Origin: Escherichia phage LF82-9
Direction: 5' to 3' (one strand)
Sequence record: PV660452
Length of the DNA stretch: 64,000 nt
Within the stretch, counting starts at the first letter, position 1; the number at the start of each line of letters is the position of its first letter. The position numbers were made by a program, and so were the translations under genes. Below, in pieces: positions 1-40,367 of the stretch. Under the pieces are notes generated by a model. It searched no databases. It saw only the letters and a list, made by a program, of their open reading frames with translations, and was not told the DNA's origin.

Positions 1-498
1 AGAATACTTAGGACGAGTTAGACCAGAATCTTCAACTTTATTATAGCCATTGATAACAATTTTACCATCTTTATTTGTAATAGCAATTGTATCAATCTGA
101 AGACCACGTGAAACTCGAAGCAATTGTTGAAGGTCTTCAGCTTTAATTTCAGTAATCACAGAAGCCACTGGGAATTGAATTGGCTTATTAGGAAAAACAA
201 TGGTGCTCTTGTCGGCAGCAGGCCAATAAACTGTGGAACGTGTGTCCGCAATTTTAATATTGCCATCAGTGTGCATTGAAATTTCAGCATCGTCAGACAC
301 TAGACTCAAAATGCTTAAGAAGCTATTCAAATCATAAAGTGCTACGTCAAAATCAATTTCATCAGAGATATTTGCTTCCGCATAAGTGGTGCCATTAACT
401 GCACGAGTCATAATAAATTTACCTTGACTCAGCAGAATGCCGGAGTTAATAGAGGCAAAGTTTTTCAGAATAGCGATAGTATCTTTAGACAGTTTCAT
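1..498 (-). CDS. 45: Sliding clamp gp45, N-terminal portion; gene continues beyond window start
   Basis: Minus-strand translation from ATG at 498 reads MKLSKDTIAILKNFASINSG..., matching the T4 gp45 N-terminus from memory; SD AAGGAAA upstream. Confidence 0.85.
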   Translation of the reverse strand, partial: MKLSKDTIAILKNFASINSGILLSQGKFIMTRAVNGTTYAEANISDEIDFDVALYDLNSFLSILSLVSDDAEISMHTDGNIKIADTRSTVYWPAADKSTIVFPNKPIQFPVASVITEIKAEDLQQLLRVSRGLQIDTIAITNKDGKIVINGYNKVEDSGLTRPKYS

Positions 499-12157: not shown

Positions 12158-12583
12158 TTAACTTAAACGTCTTTCTAAATATTCAATGTATTCTGCGGCT
12201 GCTTGCATCAGGTTACCTTCATAGCCGTCGTTATTTTCTTGTCCAGCTAATTTAGCTAATGCATAAGAAATTCGTTCACCTTCGAATTCACCAAGTTTAC
12301 TACCTAGCACATCAGCAATATCAGCCGAATCAATTTCTTCGAGTTCATCTATTGAATGGGATTCCCAGAAGCACCAAAGAGAAGTATCACGGTCATAGAT
12401 GCAAAGTTTCTCACCTGTGTTCAACATCACTTCGATAATGCCATGGTCGCCATAACCATCTTCGGTAGTAGTACCAATTACCTTGAGGATTGTTCCTTTC
12501 TTTAATTCAGGAAACTTGACTTGTAGTTCTTCGTCTTCTTTAACAATCTTGAACCATTTACCGCGAGTTTCAGAAATATTCAT
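12158..12583 (-). CDS. Hypothetical protein (141 aa); positional candidate for pin (Lon protease inhibitor), not verified
   Basis: ORF track 12158..12721 trimmed to ATG MNISETRGKWF...; lies between 49 and nrdC as pin does in T4. Confidence 0.45.
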   Translation of the reverse strand: MNISETRGKWFKIVKEDEELQVKFPELKKGTILKVIGTTTEDGYGDHGIIEVMLNTGEKLCIYDRDTSLWCFWESHSIDELEEIDSADIADVLGSKLGEFEGERISYALAKLAGQENNDGYEGNLMQAAAEYIEYLERRLS

Positions 12584-12584
12584 A

Positions 12585-12755
12585 TCAATATTCTCTATAA
12601 AAGTTACGATGAGAACGTTTAGCTTTGCGAAGCTGACGTTTAGTAGGACGAACTGTAAATAGTTGTCCAGAGAAAAAATTCGAATCGGTTTTAATAAGCA
12701 AATACCAATCATGCTTGCCATTTTTTAATAAACGGTACAATAATTTAACTTGCAT
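12585..12755 (-). CDS. Hypothetical small basic protein (56 aa)
   Basis: ORF track 12585..12782 trimmed to ATG at 12755. Confidence 0.3.
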   Translation of the reverse strand: MQVKLLYRLLKNGKHDWYLLIKTDSNFFSGQLFTVRPTKRQLRKAKRSHRNFYREY

Positions 12756-12903
12756 AATAATCTCTTCCCATTTCCATATCAATTAATTCATTTATTGAAG
12801 GTTCATCATAACATGGTTCTTCGTCGTTGTAAACCGTTTCGACGTCTGGCTCGACAGTCTCCCATCGAGCAGAATACCACGGTTTAACCCCGGAGTTTAT
12901 TGA
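12745..12903 (-). CDS. Hypothetical small acidic protein (52 aa); below ORF-track cutoff
   Basis: Manual translation MKSSINSGVKPWYSARWETVEPDVETVYNDEEP... Confidence 0.3.
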   Translation of the reverse strand, partial: SINSGVKPWYSARWETVEPDVETVYNDEEPCYDEPSINELIDMEMGRDYYAS

Positions 12904-13219
12904 GCTCTTCATAATCAATCCAGGATTCTAGCCCTGACGGCAGGTCACATTCAATGTTCCACAGAAGCTCTTCAATGGCTTGCAGGCGATTATATTCTTC
13001 AACAGTAATAGTAACCATTGTTTCAGGCTTTTTAACCATCATGTCATTCATCAGAATGTACAGATCTTCACAAACAGCCGGGTCGTCCCATGTCCATATT
13101 TCAGCATCTCGAACCAATGAAGTCGGAATAGAATTTAAAACTTCAAGCTTAGTAGGAGCGTCAGGACCGAGAAGAGTTGCTACAAATTTATATGCTTTGG
13201 CGAAATCAATATCGTTCAT
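12884..13219 (-). CDS. Hypothetical acidic protein (111 aa)
   Basis: ORF track; start region duplicates the nrdC-end/next-gene junction sequence. Confidence 0.5.
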   Translation of the reverse strand: MNDIDFAKAYKFVATLLGPDAPTKLEVLNSIPTSLVRDAEIWTWDDPAVCEDLYILMNDMMVKKPETMVTITVEEYNRLQAIEELLWNIECDLPSGLESWIDYEELNKLRG

Positions 13220-23167: not shown

Positions 23168-23470
23168 TTAGATAGATGTAGGCTCTAATTTTATTTTCAT
23201 GAACTCGGCAAATTGTCTGGCGGTTTTTATGCCTTGTTCATGACATTCAAATGCATCATCACAGGGGCTATTTTTGTAATGCTTTGCCATATACTTATAG
23301 AATTTTTCAGAGTTCTCGACATTTTGAATTTCAAACAAAGTATATACGTTTTTAATCCCTGATTCCATAAAGTTATCAAAGTATGGGTCAATATGTGCAG
23401 TACCAACGATAGGAGTTGTTGCTGCAAAAAACCCCAGCATCGCCATGACAGCTATCGCTCTTAAGGCCAT
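23168..23470 (-). CDS. rI: Lysis-inhibition regulator rI (antiholin)
   Basis: 100 aa; MALRAIAVMAMLGFFAA...DPYFDNFMESGIKNVYTLFE...KNSPCDDAFEC matches T4 RI. Confidence 0.85.
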   Translation of the reverse strand: MALRAIAVMAMLGFFAATTPIVGTAHIDPYFDNFMESGIKNVYTLFEIQNVENSEKFYKYMAKHYKNSPCDDAFECHEQGIKTARQFAEFMKIKLEPTSI

Positions 23471-23482
23471 ATAGGCCTCCTG

Positions 23483-23695
23483 TTAATTTTGGCCAGTATT
23501 TATTTTTCGCCTTTGGACGGCCTTAACATCTGTGAGGTATTTTTCCAGCTTGCGCTTGCGTGTATAATCAGCTTTAGAACCAGTTTGACGGATATCCTCG
23601 TTTAAATGAGAAATAGAATGTCCTAATTCTCTTCGGATTTCATCCAATTGGGTTACAGTAAGATTACGAAGTTGTCTTTCGTTTAATTGCTGCAT
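23483..23695 (-). CDS. Hypothetical protein (70 aa)
   Basis: ORF track. Confidence 0.45.
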
Positions 23696-23722
23696 ATATA
23701 CCTCTTGGTTAGATATTAGTAT

Positions 23723-24304
23723 TTATAACAACCCTGTCAAATCATTCCAATGCTTCCGGCATAATGACACATATCTATCGGTATCACCAATTTCAATTTG
23801 ACTGCCATCTGTAATTGGAAGTCCGTCTTCCGTGACTCTAGCTACCATTGTGGCCTTTTTACCACAATGACAGACACCTTTAAGTTCAACAAGCTTATCG
23901 GCAATAGCCATTAATGCTTGAGAACCTTCAAATAGATTACCTTTAAAATCTGTTCGTAGTCCATATGCCATTACCGGCACATTGTATACGTCAACAATAC
24001 GACTAAGTTGATACACCTTTTCAGTAGTTAAGAACTGAGCTTCGTCAACAAATACGCAGTGAATATCCTTTTGTGCTGCAGCCCATTTATAGAATTCAAA
24101 GATATCCATGTCTTTTGTAATTATATTGGCATCCTGACGAATACCAATACGAGAGACTATTTCACCTTTTGAATTACGAGTATCAATAGCCGGTTTAAGA
24201 ACTAATACACCCATGCCACGTTCTTTATAGTTATGTGCGGCAGTAAGTAATGAAGCAGACTTACCAGCGTTCATAGCGGCATAGGTAAAAATTAAACTAG
24301 CCAT
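23723..24304 (-). CDS. tk: Thymidine kinase
   Basis: 193 aa; P-loop AAMNAGKS, VFVDEAQF, zinc-ribbon cysteines CHCG...CRKH; same length as T4 Tk. Confidence 0.92.
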   Translation of the reverse strand: MASLIFTYAAMNAGKSASLLTAAHNYKERGMGVLVLKPAIDTRNSKGEIVSRIGIRQDANIITKDMDIFEFYKWAAAQKDIHCVFVDEAQFLTTEKVYQLSRIVDVYNVPVMAYGLRTDFKGNLFEGSQALMAIADKLVELKGVCHCGKKATMVARVTEDGLPITDGSQIEIGDTDRYVSLCRKHWNDLTGLL

Positions 24305-24494
24305 AAGAGTCCTTAGTTAAATTTTCTAAATATGTTTCTAAATCATTTTCAGCTTTATTGATAGATTTTACTAATTCGTAGTATGTTTCGGCATCTCCAT
24401 ATTCAGAAGATATTTCAAAAGACAAATCCTTTTCTAAACTAATAATTTCACCAACTAAAAATAATATTTCGTTCTTTTGTTCGCGAGTAATCAT
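24297..24494 (-). CDS. Hypothetical small acidic protein (65 aa)
   Basis: ORF track; coupled overlap. Confidence 0.45.
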   Translation of the reverse strand: MITREQKNEILFLVGEIISLEKDLSFEISSEYGDAETYYELVKSINKAENDLETYLENLTKDSYG

Positions 24495-24682
24495 AATGAA
24501 TTTATATAATCAATAAGTTCTTGCTCTTTATCGTCAAAATCTTTACACAGTTCTTCGTATTCGTCAGTATTAAAAGGACCGCATTCATTACAAACTTTTT
24601 CCAATTCGCTATTTTTATCCATAACTTCGTGGATAAGAGAAAAGAGTTTGTCTTTTTGTTCTTTACTTAAACTCATAACCAT
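24491..24682 (-). CDS. Hypothetical small acidic protein (63 aa)
   Basis: ORF track. Confidence 0.45.
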   Translation of the reverse strand: MVMSLSKEQKDKLFSLIHEVMDKNSELEKVCNECGPFNTDEYEELCKDFDDKEQELIDYINSL

Positions 24683-24900
24683 GTCACCTTTAAACAGTAT
24701 TCTTCTACATGCTGTTTACGACCTTTCTTATCAATAAAGGTATATTCAACGAATGTTCCAATGTAGTCTTTATCGACATCATGTGGACTATTAATTGGAC
24801 ATTTAGTACGACAAATGCGTTCCCATTGACGAATAATTACTGCTTTATTTTTAGGATCAAACGGATGTGGGTAATGCACATTCATAATAATGGTTCCCAA
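24673..24900 (-). CDS. Hypothetical protein (75 aa)
   Basis: ORF track. Confidence 0.45.
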   Translation of the reverse strand: MGTIIMNVHYPHPFDPKNKAVIIRQWERICRTKCPINSPHDVDKDYIGTFVEYTFIDKKGRKQHVEEYCLKVTWL

Positions 24901-25379
24901 TCAACAATCACAATTTCTAGTTTAGTGGAATATGTATCAAGAATTTCTTCAATGATATCCCAGTTTCCACCACCTATACCTGCACCAATTCTTGGCATGT
25001 AAATCACAGGCTTTGCTATCTTATTCTTTCCGAATTTATTTAATTCTATTATACAATTCATTAAAGCAGAGTACTCAAAATTAGGTCCGGGCTCAAACTG
25101 TGTATAAAGATTAAAGCAATAAGCTTTATGGGTCTTAAAATATTTTTCATAAACCGAATAGGAACCGAGTTTAGACTCGTCTCCGAATTCGGTTTGAAGT
25201 TTATCGGCTTCTAAAATTTTTGGATAAGCCTTTGCTAATTGTCCTGCTACACCAGCGCCCATTGTATGAAAACAATTGCACCCATGAGCAATATTATTAC
25301 CTTTAGAAAACAGGGCGACAATATCGCCCTTGATATAGTTTTTAATCACTTGCTGCAAGTCCTCTAGTATAAGAGTCAA
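24882..25379 (-). CDS. Macro-domain protein (ADP-ribose binding/processing), 165 aa
   Basis: Macro signature motifs HGCNCFHTMGAGVAGQ and PRIGAGIGGG. Confidence 0.65.
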   Translation of the reverse strand: MTLILEDLQQVIKNYIKGDIVALFSKGNNIAHGCNCFHTMGAGVAGQLAKAYPKILEADKLQTEFGDESKLGSYSVYEKYFKTHKAYCFNLYTQFEPGPNFEYSALMNCIIELNKFGKNKIAKPVIYMPRIGAGIGGGNWDIIEEILDTYSTKLEIVIVDWEPLL

Positions 25380-25689
25380 CTAGACGGTCCACCATAGAAT
25401 TGCATGCTGCCTTATCTTTAGGTTCCGCCACCGAGCATTCTAATATTTGCCATTTTTTATAGTATCTTTTAATTAAGGTAGACGCCTTGAACCTACTAGA
25501 CGCCCCATCTTTTTCTCCGTCTTTATATGCATATAACAATTTTTGTGAAAAATCTACTTTACACTCTTGACTTTTACCACAATAATCAGACGCCGTTCTG
25601 TTTGTATACTCCGTTACATCAGTATATGTAGTATTAGCAAGAGCGTTAAATGAAACCAAGCCAACTATTAAAGCCAACATTTTGGTCAT
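25342..25689 (-). CDS. Hypothetical secreted protein (115 aa) at the T4 vs position
   Basis: N-terminal signal-peptide-like MTKMLALIVGLVSFNALA; four cysteines. Confidence 0.5.
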   Translation of the reverse strand: MTKMLALIVGLVSFNALANTTYTDVTEYTNRTASDYCGKSQECKVDFSQKLLYAYKDGEKDGASSRFKASTLIKRYYKKWQILECSVAEPKDKAACNSMVDRLVDSYTRGLAASD

Positions 25690-26228
25690 TCTTTTATTTC
25701 CAGTAGTTTATTTGATTTAAGGTAATTAGCCTTTTCTAGGACTTCAGAAGCATATTTACTTCCAGCACTTGTCTTCCATCCAGCATTATATGAGGATATG
25801 GCTTTCCTTATATCCCCGTTATGTATATTTAACCAATAAGAAAATTCGATATAAGCCCATCTTGCTGAATTAGACCGCTTAGATAGCATTTTCTTAATTT
25901 GGGCATCAGTCATATTATAACCAAGCTGGTTAATTCTTGCCCTCATTGTTGGTAGATAATTTTGGAACATTCCATACGCATGGTGACCTTTCTTATCTTT
26001 AAGATTAATACCGGCAGATGATTCCTGCCATAGTATTGCGGCCATTATGTATCCAAGTCCTTTCTTATGCATATTTTCATGCGTTTTAAATTTTCCATCC
26101 TTAGAAAACTGTTCCCCAAACTGATAAGCATAATTCAAGTTATCGAGTTGGACATTACTAAAAGTATGCTCGGAGCTATGTGCTGATAACGAAAGAGCAA
26201 ATAGACCAGCGAGTAGTGCTTTTCTCAT
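25686..26228 (-). CDS. Secreted lytic-transglycosylase-like protein (SLT-domain motifs), 180 aa
   Basis: Signal peptide MRKALLAGLFALSLSAHS; motifs WQESSAG, GMFQ, SYNAG resemble family-1 lytic transglycosylases. Confidence 0.5.
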   Translation of the reverse strand: MRKALLAGLFALSLSAHSSEHTFSNVQLDNLNYAYQFGEQFSKDGKFKTHENMHKKGLGYIMAAILWQESSAGINLKDKKGHHAYGMFQNYLPTMRARINQLGYNMTDAQIKKMLSKRSNSARWAYIEFSYWLNIHNGDIRKAISSYNAGWKTSAGSKYASEVLEKANYLKSNKLLEIKE

Positions 26229-26236
26229 GTTTACCT

Positions 26237-26695
26237 CTAGATTTTAATCACTGCTTTAGAAGCTTTTCCTGGTAGTCGTTTACTGTTAATAATAGCCATT
26301 CTGCATTGAAGAGTCTTCATTTTGAATGCTGGATTTTCGCGACAAACTGTAAGTCCTAACCAAAGATTTCCATCAGTTATTTCTAAACGGCCTGGGCGAT
26401 ATTCGACACCTTCGACAAAATCTTCATCAACATCTGGACGTGCCGGCATTGATAAAAATTCTGCAACTTCTTTAGCATGATTTTTTACTTTATGAAATAA
26501 TTCAAAAACGTAATTCTCATCTATTTCTCTCTGGATGGCACGATCTAAGAGATGTTGAGAATACTTGATATGAAAGCCTGGTAGTCCAAGAGACTTTGCA
26601 GCATCTTTTATACCGGCATTTATTTTGCGGAACTCCGTTTCAAAGATTCGACGGAGTTTATTACGGCGGATAAAAACTTCCGAATTGATAGTCAT
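26237..26695 (-). CDS. regB: RegB sequence-specific endoribonuclease
   Basis: MTINSEVFIRRNKLRR...HLLDRAIQREIDENYVFELFHK...GRLEITDGNLWLG...QCRMAIINSKRLPGKASKAVIK matches T4 RegB; 152 aa. Confidence 0.9.
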   Translation of the reverse strand: MTINSEVFIRRNKLRRIFETEFRKINAGIKDAAKSLGLPGFHIKYSQHLLDRAIQREIDENYVFELFHKVKNHAKEVAEFLSMPARPDVDEDFVEGVEYRPGRLEITDGNLWLGLTVCRENPAFKMKTLQCRMAIINSKRLPGKASKAVIKI

Positions 26696-26723
26696 TTTGA
26701 TTTCTCCTCTAGTTGACAAGTCT

Positions 26724-26752
26724 ATAGTAACACAACTAGAGGAGAAGTAAAC
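26724..26752 (-). promoter_or_regulatory. Early promoter (GTTTAC-N17-TACTAT) inside a 13-bp stem that pairs the regB RBS with the spacer
   Basis: Inverted repeat TCTCCTCTAGTTG / CAACTAGAGGAGA flanking the -10. Confidence 0.6.
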
Positions 26753-27051
26753 TACTCTTTGAAAGGAATTAACTTTTTAACTGCTTTAGATACTTCGTCA
26801 CGAACCTGATGGAAGTTCTTGAGCTGTTCAAGGCGTTGTTCGTAATACGCAATCTCATCTTCTTCAAGACAATCGTCAGCGTCTTCTTTCAGATATGCCT
26901 TGTACTCATTAAAGAGGGCCCATAGGCGGTTCTCAAAGTCATCAAGGCTTTGAATTTTCTTGTGCTTCGGAACAAGGCCAAAAGGATTGCTTTCAGTTAT
27001 GCGTCTAGATGCTTCATAATGAGTTCCAAAGCCTGATAGGATTTGAGCCAT
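26752..27051 (-). CDS. Hypothetical protein (99 aa)
   Basis: ORF track. Confidence 0.5.
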
Positions 27052-27317
27052 TAGTATTTTTCCTCAGGTCGAAATACTGCACGACAGGCCCACATGCTGG
27101 CTTCTTTTAGATGTTGCTTAGCATACTTAAGAGCCTGTACTGCATCCATATCTTCTTTGGTTTGTTGCTCTGTTTCATTTTCTTTCAAGATATATGCTTC
27201 TTCAATCAGAGCATCAAACAACAATCCAAGACGGACTTCTGCATCTTTAATAGCGTTCACTTTACCGATTTTATCGTCGGTATGCGGCTTGTAGCCTTTG
27301 ATGTCTTCAATCGACAT
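27051..27317 (-). CDS. Hypothetical protein (88 aa) at the T4 vs.4 position; possible Acb2-type cyclic-nucleotide sponge, not verified
   Basis: ATG at 27317 with SD GAGGAA; synteny only (regB, vs.3, vs.4 ... glycyl-radical ORF). Confidence 0.4.
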
Positions 27318-39419: not shown

Positions 39420-39496
39420 TGGTCAGGGTGAAAGGATTCTAACCTTTAACCTGCGGTTTAGAGGACCGCTACTCTATACAATTGAGTTACACCCCG
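39420..39496 (-). tRNA. tRNA-Arg (anticodon UCU)
   Basis: Manual cloverleaf: anticodon stem GCGGT/ACCGC, loop CCUCUAA, T-arm AAAGG-TTAGAAT-CCTTT, encoded CCA. Confidence 0.7.
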
Positions 39497-39622
39497 TAAT
39501 TAGTTCACAGCAATACCTACTCCAACAATCAAGATGTCTTCACACGAAATTAAGAGAAGTGTGATCAGTTCAACCCCTATAATCGCGTCAAGTAGATATT
39601 AATGTGACAGTTGTCACAAGTT

Positions 39623-39697
39623 TGGCGGACATGCATGGATTCGAACCATGGACCAATTGATTAACAGTCAACTGCTCTACCACTGAGCTACACATCC
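39623..39697 (-). tRNA. tRNA-Asn (anticodon GUU)
   Basis: Manual fold: D-arm GCTCAGTGGTAGAGC, anticodon loop CUGUUAA, T-arm CATGG-TTCGAAT-CCATG, encoded CCA. Confidence 0.65.
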
Positions 39698-39701
39698 AAA
39701 T

Positions 39702-39788
39702 TGGTGGGGAGTGGTGGAGTCGAACCACCCGAGTCGCAATGACAATGAATTTACAGTCCACACCGCTACCTCTACGGGATAACTCCCC
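39702..39788 (-). tRNA. tRNA-Tyr (anticodon GUA), long variable arm
   Basis: 87 nt; acceptor GGGGAGT/ACTCCCC, anticodon loop CUGUAAA, T-arm GGTGG-TTCGACT-CCACC. Confidence 0.55.
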
Positions 39789-39794
39789 TTAATT

Positions 39795-39869
39795 TGGTGG
39801 CCCTGGGTGGAATTGAACCACCATCTGGCGATTATGAGTCGCTTGCTTGAACCTTCCAGCTACAGGGCC
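39795..39869 (-). tRNA. tRNA with CAU anticodon (Met or lysidine-modified Ile)
   Basis: Acceptor GGCCCTG/CAGGGCC, anticodon loop CUCAUAA, T-arm GGTGG-TTCAATT-CCACC, CCA encoded. Confidence 0.65.
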
Positions 39870-39870
39870 T

Positions 39871-39946
39871 TGGTGCTGATTAACGGAATCGAACCGCCGA
39901 CCTTCTCATTACAAGTGAGTTGCTCTACCTACTGAGCTAAATCAGC
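39871..39946 (-). tRNA. tRNA-Thr (anticodon UGU)
   Basis: GCTGATTTAGCTCAGTAGGTAGAGC...CUUGUAA...GGCGG-TTCGATT-CCGTT; matches T4 tRNA-Thr architecture. Confidence 0.8.
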
Positions 39947-39951
39947 AAAAC

Positions 39952-40041
39952 TGGCGGAGGCGATAGGATTTGAACCTATGAGTCGCCGGAGCGACTGCCG
40001 GTTTTCAAGACCGGTGCATTAAACCACTCTGCCACGCCTCC
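39952..40041 (-). tRNA. tRNA-Ser (anticodon UGA), long variable arm
   Basis: GGAGGCGTGGCAGAGTGGTTTAATGCACCGGTCTTGAAAACCGG... matches T4 tRNA-Ser. Confidence 0.85.
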
Positions 40042-40043
40042 AG

Positions 40044-40117
40044 TCTCCATACAAGGATTTGAACCTTGGACCTCCTGATCCCAAATCAGGCGCTCTACCA
40101 AACTGAGCTACACGGAG
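40044..40117 (-). tRNA. tRNA-Pro (anticodon UGG); 3-prime CCA not encoded
   Basis: Anticodon stem-loop CCTGA-TTTGGGA-TCAGG; T-arm CAAGG-TTCAAAT-CCTTG. Confidence 0.75.
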
Positions 40118-40127
40118 TAAATTAAAT

Positions 40128-40201
<74 letters not shown>

Positions 40202-40206
40202 AAATT

Positions 40207-40293
40207 TGGTGCGAGAAGTGGGACTCGAACCCACAAGGAAATCATTCCGCAGCATTTTAAGTGCTGTGCCTTTACCAATTTGACCATTCTCGC
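40207..40293 (-). tRNA. tRNA-Leu (anticodon UAA)
   Basis: GCGAGAATGGTCAAATTGGTAAAGGCACAGCACTTAAAATGCTGCGG...GGGTTCGAGTCCCACTTCTCGCACCA matches T4 tRNA-Leu. Confidence 0.88.
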
Positions 40294-40294
40294 G

Positions 40295-40367
40295 CTGGGA
40301 ATAAAGGACTCGAACCTTTGCATCCTGGAATCAAAATCCAGTGCCTTACCAACTTGGCTAATTCCCA
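40295..40367 (-). tRNA. tRNA-Gln (anticodon UUG); CCA not fully encoded
   Basis: TGGGAATTAGCCAAGTTGGTAAGGC...CTGGA-TTTTGAT-TCCAG...GGTTCGAGTCC resembles T4 tRNA-Gln. Confidence 0.8.

Follow-up and report, generated by a model that had tools for sequence, protein, structure and literature searches.

The tk.4 locus of phage LF82-9

The window analysed here, a stretch of 64,000 nucleotides of Escherichia phage LF82-9 (sequence record PV660452), carries on its minus strand tk.4 (adfM), a small gene between tk.3 and vs that codes for a predicted macrodomain protein. A sequence-only reading had placed a macro-domain protein at 24882-25379, in the interval between tk and regB. The placement was correct (tk 23723..24304, Pfam TK, E 2e-56; regB 26237..26719, Pfam REGB_T4, E 2e-68), and the listing of open reading frames does contain a minus-strand frame at 24882-25379, with 165 amino acids from a TTG. 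Over 3 kb at this locus the sequence matches that of Escherichia phage LF82-4, an RB69-group Mosigvirus, with 100% identity.

The TTG start was rejected and a GTG at 25349 preferred. The ATG of T4 tk.4 aligns exactly with this GTG, a matching Shine-Dalgarno sequence (GAGGA, 25364..25360) lies 10 nucleotides upstream of it with sequence and spacing as in T4, and the 10 extra codons upstream of the GTG fall inside the 3' end of vs. Because of the T4 start alignment, the shared GAGGA and the position of the extra codons inside vs, the gene was set to 24882..25349. The GenBank annotation of LF82-4 gives the 155-residue version, T4 tk.4 likewise has 155 residues, and the tblastn alignments of Tequatrovirus orthologs start at residue 11 of the 165-residue frame. 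Residue numbers below refer to the 155-residue protein.

24882..25349, minus strand: tk.4 (adfM) coding sequence, 155 amino acids from GTG, a single stand-alone macrodomain by prediction
25350..25379, minus strand: 5' extension of the 165-residue frame (TTG to GTG), located in the 3' end of vs, with the tk.4 Shine-Dalgarno sequence inside it; translation as part of tk.4 improbable

The genes are tightly packed here, as is typical of the T-even cluster: tk.4 overlaps vs by 8 nucleotides, and its TGA stop (24884..24882) overlaps the ATG of tk.3 as ATGA.

Tk.4 as a macrodomain of the ALC1/TARG1 class

Judged by sequence and by its modelled structure, the tk.4 product is a stand-alone single-domain macrodomain of the ALC1/TARG1 class, and the macro-domain assignment made from the letters holds on both counts. 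The protein passes the gathering score of Pfam Macro (PF01661; 28.1 versus 22 bits, E 2.2e-6, profile positions 2-117 of 118) and matches PHROG 335, a family named 'phosphatase', at E 4e-66; because of these matches and its many homologs, the frame is not a chance one. The AlphaFold2 model, made with 88 homologs, was confident (predicted local distance difference test 95.9, predicted template modelling score 0.91) and has the three-layer alpha/beta/alpha macro fold. Sequence searches of the PDB matched BT1257, Poa1p, SCO6735, TARG1 and DarG. By sequence and structure, the nearest relatives are members of the ALC1-like/TARG1 class and not MacroD, PARG or viral Mac1. The best profile match was human TARG1/OARD1 (PDB 4J5S; E 5e-17), a protein of similar length that has in common with Tk.4 the P-R-I-G-x-G loop followed by a Trp. 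From the conserved glycine-rich loops (G31-x-G33 and G122-x-G124) and the N-terminal G8-D9 we infer that Tk.4 binds ADP-ribose.

The best match in both NCBIfam and PADLOC is DarG, far under the DarG cut-off (NCBIfam NF048014, 30.4 bits versus 250). The macrodomain of DarG, the antitoxin of DarTG2 (PDB 5M3I, 5M31, 7OMU), has its catalytic Lys80 in F-P-T-K, where the phage protein has a Gln; DarG also has a C-terminal DarT-binding domain and adjoins darT, whereas the 155-residue phage protein is a single domain with tk.3 and vs as neighbours. DarG proper was therefore rejected, on score, catalytic lysine, C-terminal domain and neighbourhood alike. Several longer relatives (P0240, P0227, P0118, P0160, P0177 and P0250) were considered as DarG-like fusions and were rejected as well, all of them scoring far under the DarG cut-off; the contigs that carry P0240 are all shorter than 2 kb.

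Orthology with T4 Tk.4 and the DarTG2 phenotype

T4 Tk.4, or AdfM (NP_049723), is identical to the LF82-9 protein at 131 of 155 positions (85%) in a gap-free, full-length alignment, which makes the LF82-9 gene its Mosigvirus ortholog. The two genes have the start position, the Shine-Dalgarno sequence, the place between tk.3 and vs and all family-invariant residues in common. At residue 127, one of the 24 substitutions, T4 has Lys and the protein studied here the consensus Gly of the family, and the start codon is GTG here and ATG in T4. RB69 Tk.4 is 96% identical, and the gene order is conserved in T4, LF82-4, fPS-65 and ECO07P1.

That such a protein could reverse a DarT-type ADP-ribosylation of DNA, as suggested from the sequence, is supported by genetics in T4. 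In the HIDEN-SEQ preprint of November 2025, growth of a T4 transposon library on a DarTG2 host yielded one significant hit, tk.4, and a clean knockout was sensitised to DarTG2; the authors described Tk.4 as structurally similar to Mycobacterium tuberculosis DarG and gave the gene its new name, adfM (bioRxiv 10.1101/2025.11.20.689424). An earlier study had found that T4 without adfA and adfN stays DarTG2-resistant and had predicted a further factor (PMC11825919). The gene and its anti-DarTG2 role are already described; what is added here is the classification of the active site and the distinction from the AdfM of phage PhiKZ.

The T4 RefSeq record labels tk.4 'phosphatase; contains A1pp phosphatase motif'. 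A metabolic hydrolase of ADP-ribose derivatives, either an ADP-ribose-1''-phosphate phosphatase of the yeast Poa1p type or an O-acetyl-ADP-ribose deacetylase, would have no defence role. The HMMER alignment, in which the C-terminal part aligns poorly, places His22 of Tk.4 opposite His23 of Poa1p and Thr29 opposite Ser30, the active-site positions of Poa1p being His23, Ser30 and Phe152, those mutated in PDB 6LFS, 6LFT and 6LFU. The 'phosphatase' and 'O-acetyl-ADP-ribose deacetylase' labels are homology transfers and not experiments, and for the homology-transferred name of PHROG 335 we found no experimental backing in the literature. DarTG2 sensitivity is the only phenotype recorded for T4 tk.4. 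Macrodomains often have small-molecule activities of this kind on the side, which would leave the retention of the gene in ∼5% of phage genomes unexplained. The tRNA repair of T4 (Pnkp plus Rnl1) is not known to yield Appr>p. We consider a purely metabolic role very improbable.

T-even phages carry three ADP-ribosyltransferases, which favours a second alternative: the main substrates of Tk.4 might be ADP-ribosylated proteins or RNA, bearing the marks of the phage's own transferases Alt, ModA and ModB or of other ADP-ribosylating toxins of the host, and the DarTG2 effect would then be one facet. The sequence-only reading had also suggested that the protein edits the products of the phage's own ADP-ribosyltransferases, for which there is no support here. 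The family also extends well beyond the phages tested against DarTG2. Alt, ModA and ModB modify arginine, however, and macrodomains are not known to act on this linkage. TARG1 and SCO6735, of the same class, do also de-modify proteins at Asp/Glu linkages (PMC9411070). Against such substrates stands the observation that T4 can do without tk.4 on plain E. coli K-12, the gene becoming important specifically with DarTG2 (bioRxiv 10.1101/2025.11.20.689424), and we consider the protein or RNA alternative rather improbable.

A glutamine-type active site

The two motifs quoted in the sequence-only reading, HGCNCFHTMGAGVAGQ and PRIGAGIGGG, are both read directly in the sequence. They mark the two loops of the predicted pocket, with Gln84 between them:

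25239..25286, minus strand: loop 1 motif H22-G-C-N25-C-F-H-T-M-G-A-G-V-A-G-Q37 (HGCNCFHTMGAGVAGQ), conserved Asn and first glycine-rich, predicted ADP-ribose-binding loop
25098..25100, minus strand: CAG codon of Gln84, at the position of TARG1 Lys84, DarG Lys80 and SCO6735 Gln85
24966..24995, minus strand: loop 2 motif P119-R-I-G-A-G-I-G126-G-G128, diphosphate-binding loop by alignment

The active site was compared by a MAFFT multiple alignment with reference proteins and by a profile-to-TARG1 alignment. The references for M. tuberculosis DarG and human TARG1 were verified as 100% identical to PDB 5M3I and 2LGR, and those for Thermus DarG, BT1257 and SCO6735 were taken from tool alignments. 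Conservation was counted in 250 relatives, including representatives of 50%-identity clusters, down to about 35% identity (35-60%). Loop 1, which aligns with H24-V25-C-N27 of SCO6735 and N22 of DarG, is nearly invariant (N25 in 248/250, H22 in 242, G33 in 249 and A35 in 248). Gln84 belongs to the invariant strand end N80-x-Y82-T-Q84: Q84, Y82 and D49 are present in all 250 relatives and N80 in 249. At the position of TARG1 Asp125, where Tk.4 has G126, the family has Ala (144) or Gly (105) only, and never an acidic residue.

Absence of the catalytic macro-domain residues had been named beforehand as evidence that would count against the assignment. The Lys84/Asp125 dyad of TARG1 and Lys80 of DarG are indeed missing, with Gln84 and Gly126 in place of the dyad, but the combination of Gln and Asn is the layout of SCO6735. 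Streptomyces coelicolor SCO6735 (PDB 5E3B) and Bacteroides BT1257 (2AFC/2FG1) likewise have Gln at the position of the catalytic lysine, and Q84, N25 and G124 of Tk.4 align with Q85, N27 and G128. SCO6735 removes DarT-made ADP-ribose from thymidine, its Q85A mutant being inactive and N27S nearly so; its authors propose a water-mediated mechanism and suggest that thymidine de-ADP-ribosylation is the unifying activity of the class (PMC9411070). An extended mobile loop is characteristic of the SCO6735 subclass (PMC9411070). After the Gln, this loop is 6-7 residues longer in SCO6735 and BT1257 than in Tk.4, where the alignment has a gap of 6-7 columns and the loop length is that of TARG1 and DarG. 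The motif is N-M-I-G-Q in SCO6735 and BT1257 and N-x-Y-T-Q in Tk.4, and the invariant Asp49 of Tk.4 is replaced by Tyr in SCO6735, BT1257 and DarG. Full membership of the SCO6735 subclass was rejected, the long mobile loop being missing.

With the canonical Lys and Asp absent, Tk.4 might also protect without catalysis, as a pseudo-enzyme or reader that binds and blocks DarT2 or binds and shields ADP-ribosylated DNA. Even when catalytically dead, SCO6735 (Q85A) is an inhibitor of DarT in vitro, stronger than the dead forms of DarG and TARG1 (PMC9411070), and the phage factors AdfA and AdfB work by DarT binding. However, Gln84, Asn25, Asp49, Tyr82 and the glycines of the loops are strictly invariant, as would be expected of an active site and not of a toxin-specific interface, and the 155-residue protein has no counterpart of the C-terminal DarT-binding domain of DarG. 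Protection by binding only is, on this evidence, highly unlikely.

Proposed mechanism of protection

We think it likely that Tk.4 of LF82-9 is an orphan-antitoxin-like DNA ADP-ribosylglycohydrolase with a Gln-type active site, reversing the thymidine modification made by DarT2 on single-stranded phage DNA. The host toxin DarT2 would ADP-ribosylate thymidines in single-stranded phage DNA and so block replication. With the ADP-ribose held by its two glycine-rich loops, Tk.4 would cleave the ribose-thymine bond by hydrolysis and so make the DNA replicable again. The chemistry would probably be of the SCO6735 type and not of the DarG/TARG1 type, with Gln84, held by Asn25, positioning the distal ribose, a water molecule reacting and no catalytic lysine taking part. 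By analogy with T4 and SCO6735, we infer a DarTG2 phenotype like that of T4 for the Mosigvirus ortholog, an enzymatic basis of the protection and a mechanism of the SCO6735 type.

Several points weigh against this assignment. Both residues named catalytic in DarG and TARG1 are absent, Gln84 and Asn25 are placed in the pocket by sequence alignment, and the phage protein is without the extended mobile loop that has been tied to high activity on DNA in SCO6735 (PMC9411070). In the preprint, enzymatic removal of ADP-ribose is inferred without demonstration, and the DarTG2 phenotype was measured for T4 and not for the Mosigvirus allele (bioRxiv 10.1101/2025.11.20.689424); in the literature we found no T4-type Tk.4 protein that had been assayed biochemically. 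Two other anti-DarT genes, adfA and adfN, are known to be present as inactive alleles in phages of the RB69 group (PMC11825919).

A similar activity is already known in T4, where AdfN (gp30.3, NADAR) is likewise an orphan antitoxin-like DNA ADP-ribosylglycohydrolase that counters DarT in T-even phages. AdfN and AdfA (gp61.2) differ from Tk.4 in having unrelated folds, in acting against DarTG1 (guanosine marks) with no protection from DarTG2, and in lying away from tk.4 in T4.

Two lineages under the name AdfM

The name AdfM was given independently to gp104 of phage PhiKZ, which removes DarT2-made ADP-ribose from DNA in vitro (Cell Rep 2026, PMC13309987). Both gp104 and T4 Tk.4 are stand-alone macrodomains encoded by a phage, and they share their name and the defence system that they target. 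In contrast to the Gln-type protein studied here, gp104 (12518..13006 of the PhiKZ stretch compared) has the lysine of the DarG-type F-P-T-K motif together with a P-P-L-G-C loop, and its BLASTP match to Tk.4 covers only 23 residues at a marginal E of 6e-4. An equation of the two proteins was rejected on these grounds. By sequence comparison, one name covers two lineages of the class, and their chemistry is probably different. Because gp104 belongs to a different lineage of the lysine type, its biochemistry is not directly transferable to the Gln-type T4 clade.

Hairpin in the start of tk.4 and neighbouring genes

A terminator scan detected one further feature within tk.4:

25312..25330, minus strand: 8-bp GC-rich hairpin AGGGCGAT-ATT-GTCGCCCT, followed by GUUUUCU, in tk.4 codons 7-13

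The predicted RNA fold at the hairpin has −19.3 kcal/mol (z −2.1), with the Shine-Dalgarno region of tk.4 pairing with the U-tract. T4, fPS-65 (where it is annotated as 'terminator') and ECO07P1 have the identical hairpin, whereas it is absent from the orthologs of Kanagawavirus, Marfavirus and Roskildevirus; it has no covariation evidence. Such a terminator-like structure could attenuate read-through from vs or control translation of tk.4. A scan of 23400..27200 for sigma-70 promoters gave 11 sites versus 14.7 in shuffled sequence, that is, fewer, and is uninformative on transcription. In a study of T2, the tk.4 mRNA was among the partners of the small RNA ArcZ.

The tk.4 protein of ECO07P1 is 58% identical overall, and the first ∼14 codons together with the upstream end of vs are almost base for base those of T4 (ECO07P1 371..445). 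This pattern suggests a recombination junction, or a constraint at the nucleotide level on the vs/tk.4 overlap and the hairpin.

Upstream, vs (25342..25689, minus strand) and vs.1 (25686..26228, minus strand) have signal-peptide-like hydrophobic N-termini (MTKMLALIVGLVSFNALA... and MRKALLAGLFALSLSAHS...), and vs.1 has a weak match to the SLT lytic transglycosylase family (E 1e-3, under the Pfam cut-off). An exported Vs would fit poorly with the label 'valyl-tRNA synthetase modifier'. In HIDEN-SEQ, vs was the most depleted gene in minimal medium (bioRxiv 10.1101/2025.11.20.689424). Downstream, tk.1 and tk.2 (24297..24494 and 24491..24682, minus strand) are tandem paralogs, both matching Pfam DUF7438 (E 2e-14 and 4e-19), and tk.3 matches DUF7202; all three are joined to tk.4 by overlapping start and stop codons. 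Elsewhere in the window, ARAGORN finds 10 tRNA genes at 39420..40367 on the minus strand (Arg, Asn, Tyr, Met, Thr, Ser, Pro, Gly, Leu and Gln), nine of which are confirmed by Rfam at gathering score, the exception being the Tyr tRNA at 39702..39788.

Distribution and significance of the family

By tblastn, homologs were found in 2,793 of 50,697 phage records (∼5%), with hosts including Escherichia, Klebsiella, Salmonella, Pseudomonas, Vibrio, Acinetobacter and Aeromonas. An exhaustive search of representatives gave 5,278 clusters at E≤1e-3 and 1,535 at E≤1e-10. One candidate, P0127 (1,314 amino acids, 23 matched stretches), was discarded as a spurious match to a tandem-repeat protein.

The T4-type Tk.4 clade might form a third, mechanistically distinct subclass of ALC1-like macrodomains with substrates beyond the DarT2 marks, which we hold to be unlikely. 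Features that may set such a subclass apart are the Gln-type site, the short loop and the invariant Asp49 and Tyr82, as against Tyr and Ile/Pro in DarG, SCO6735 and BT1257. If true, Tk.4 could be a general eraser of nucleic-acid ADP-ribosylation, including that made by other DarT-like or RNA-targeting toxins, a reading in keeping with the occurrence of the gene in phages of many families, ∼5% of the genomes sequenced. For phage therapy and the prediction of host range, presence of the gene would predict resistance to DarTG2-type defence.
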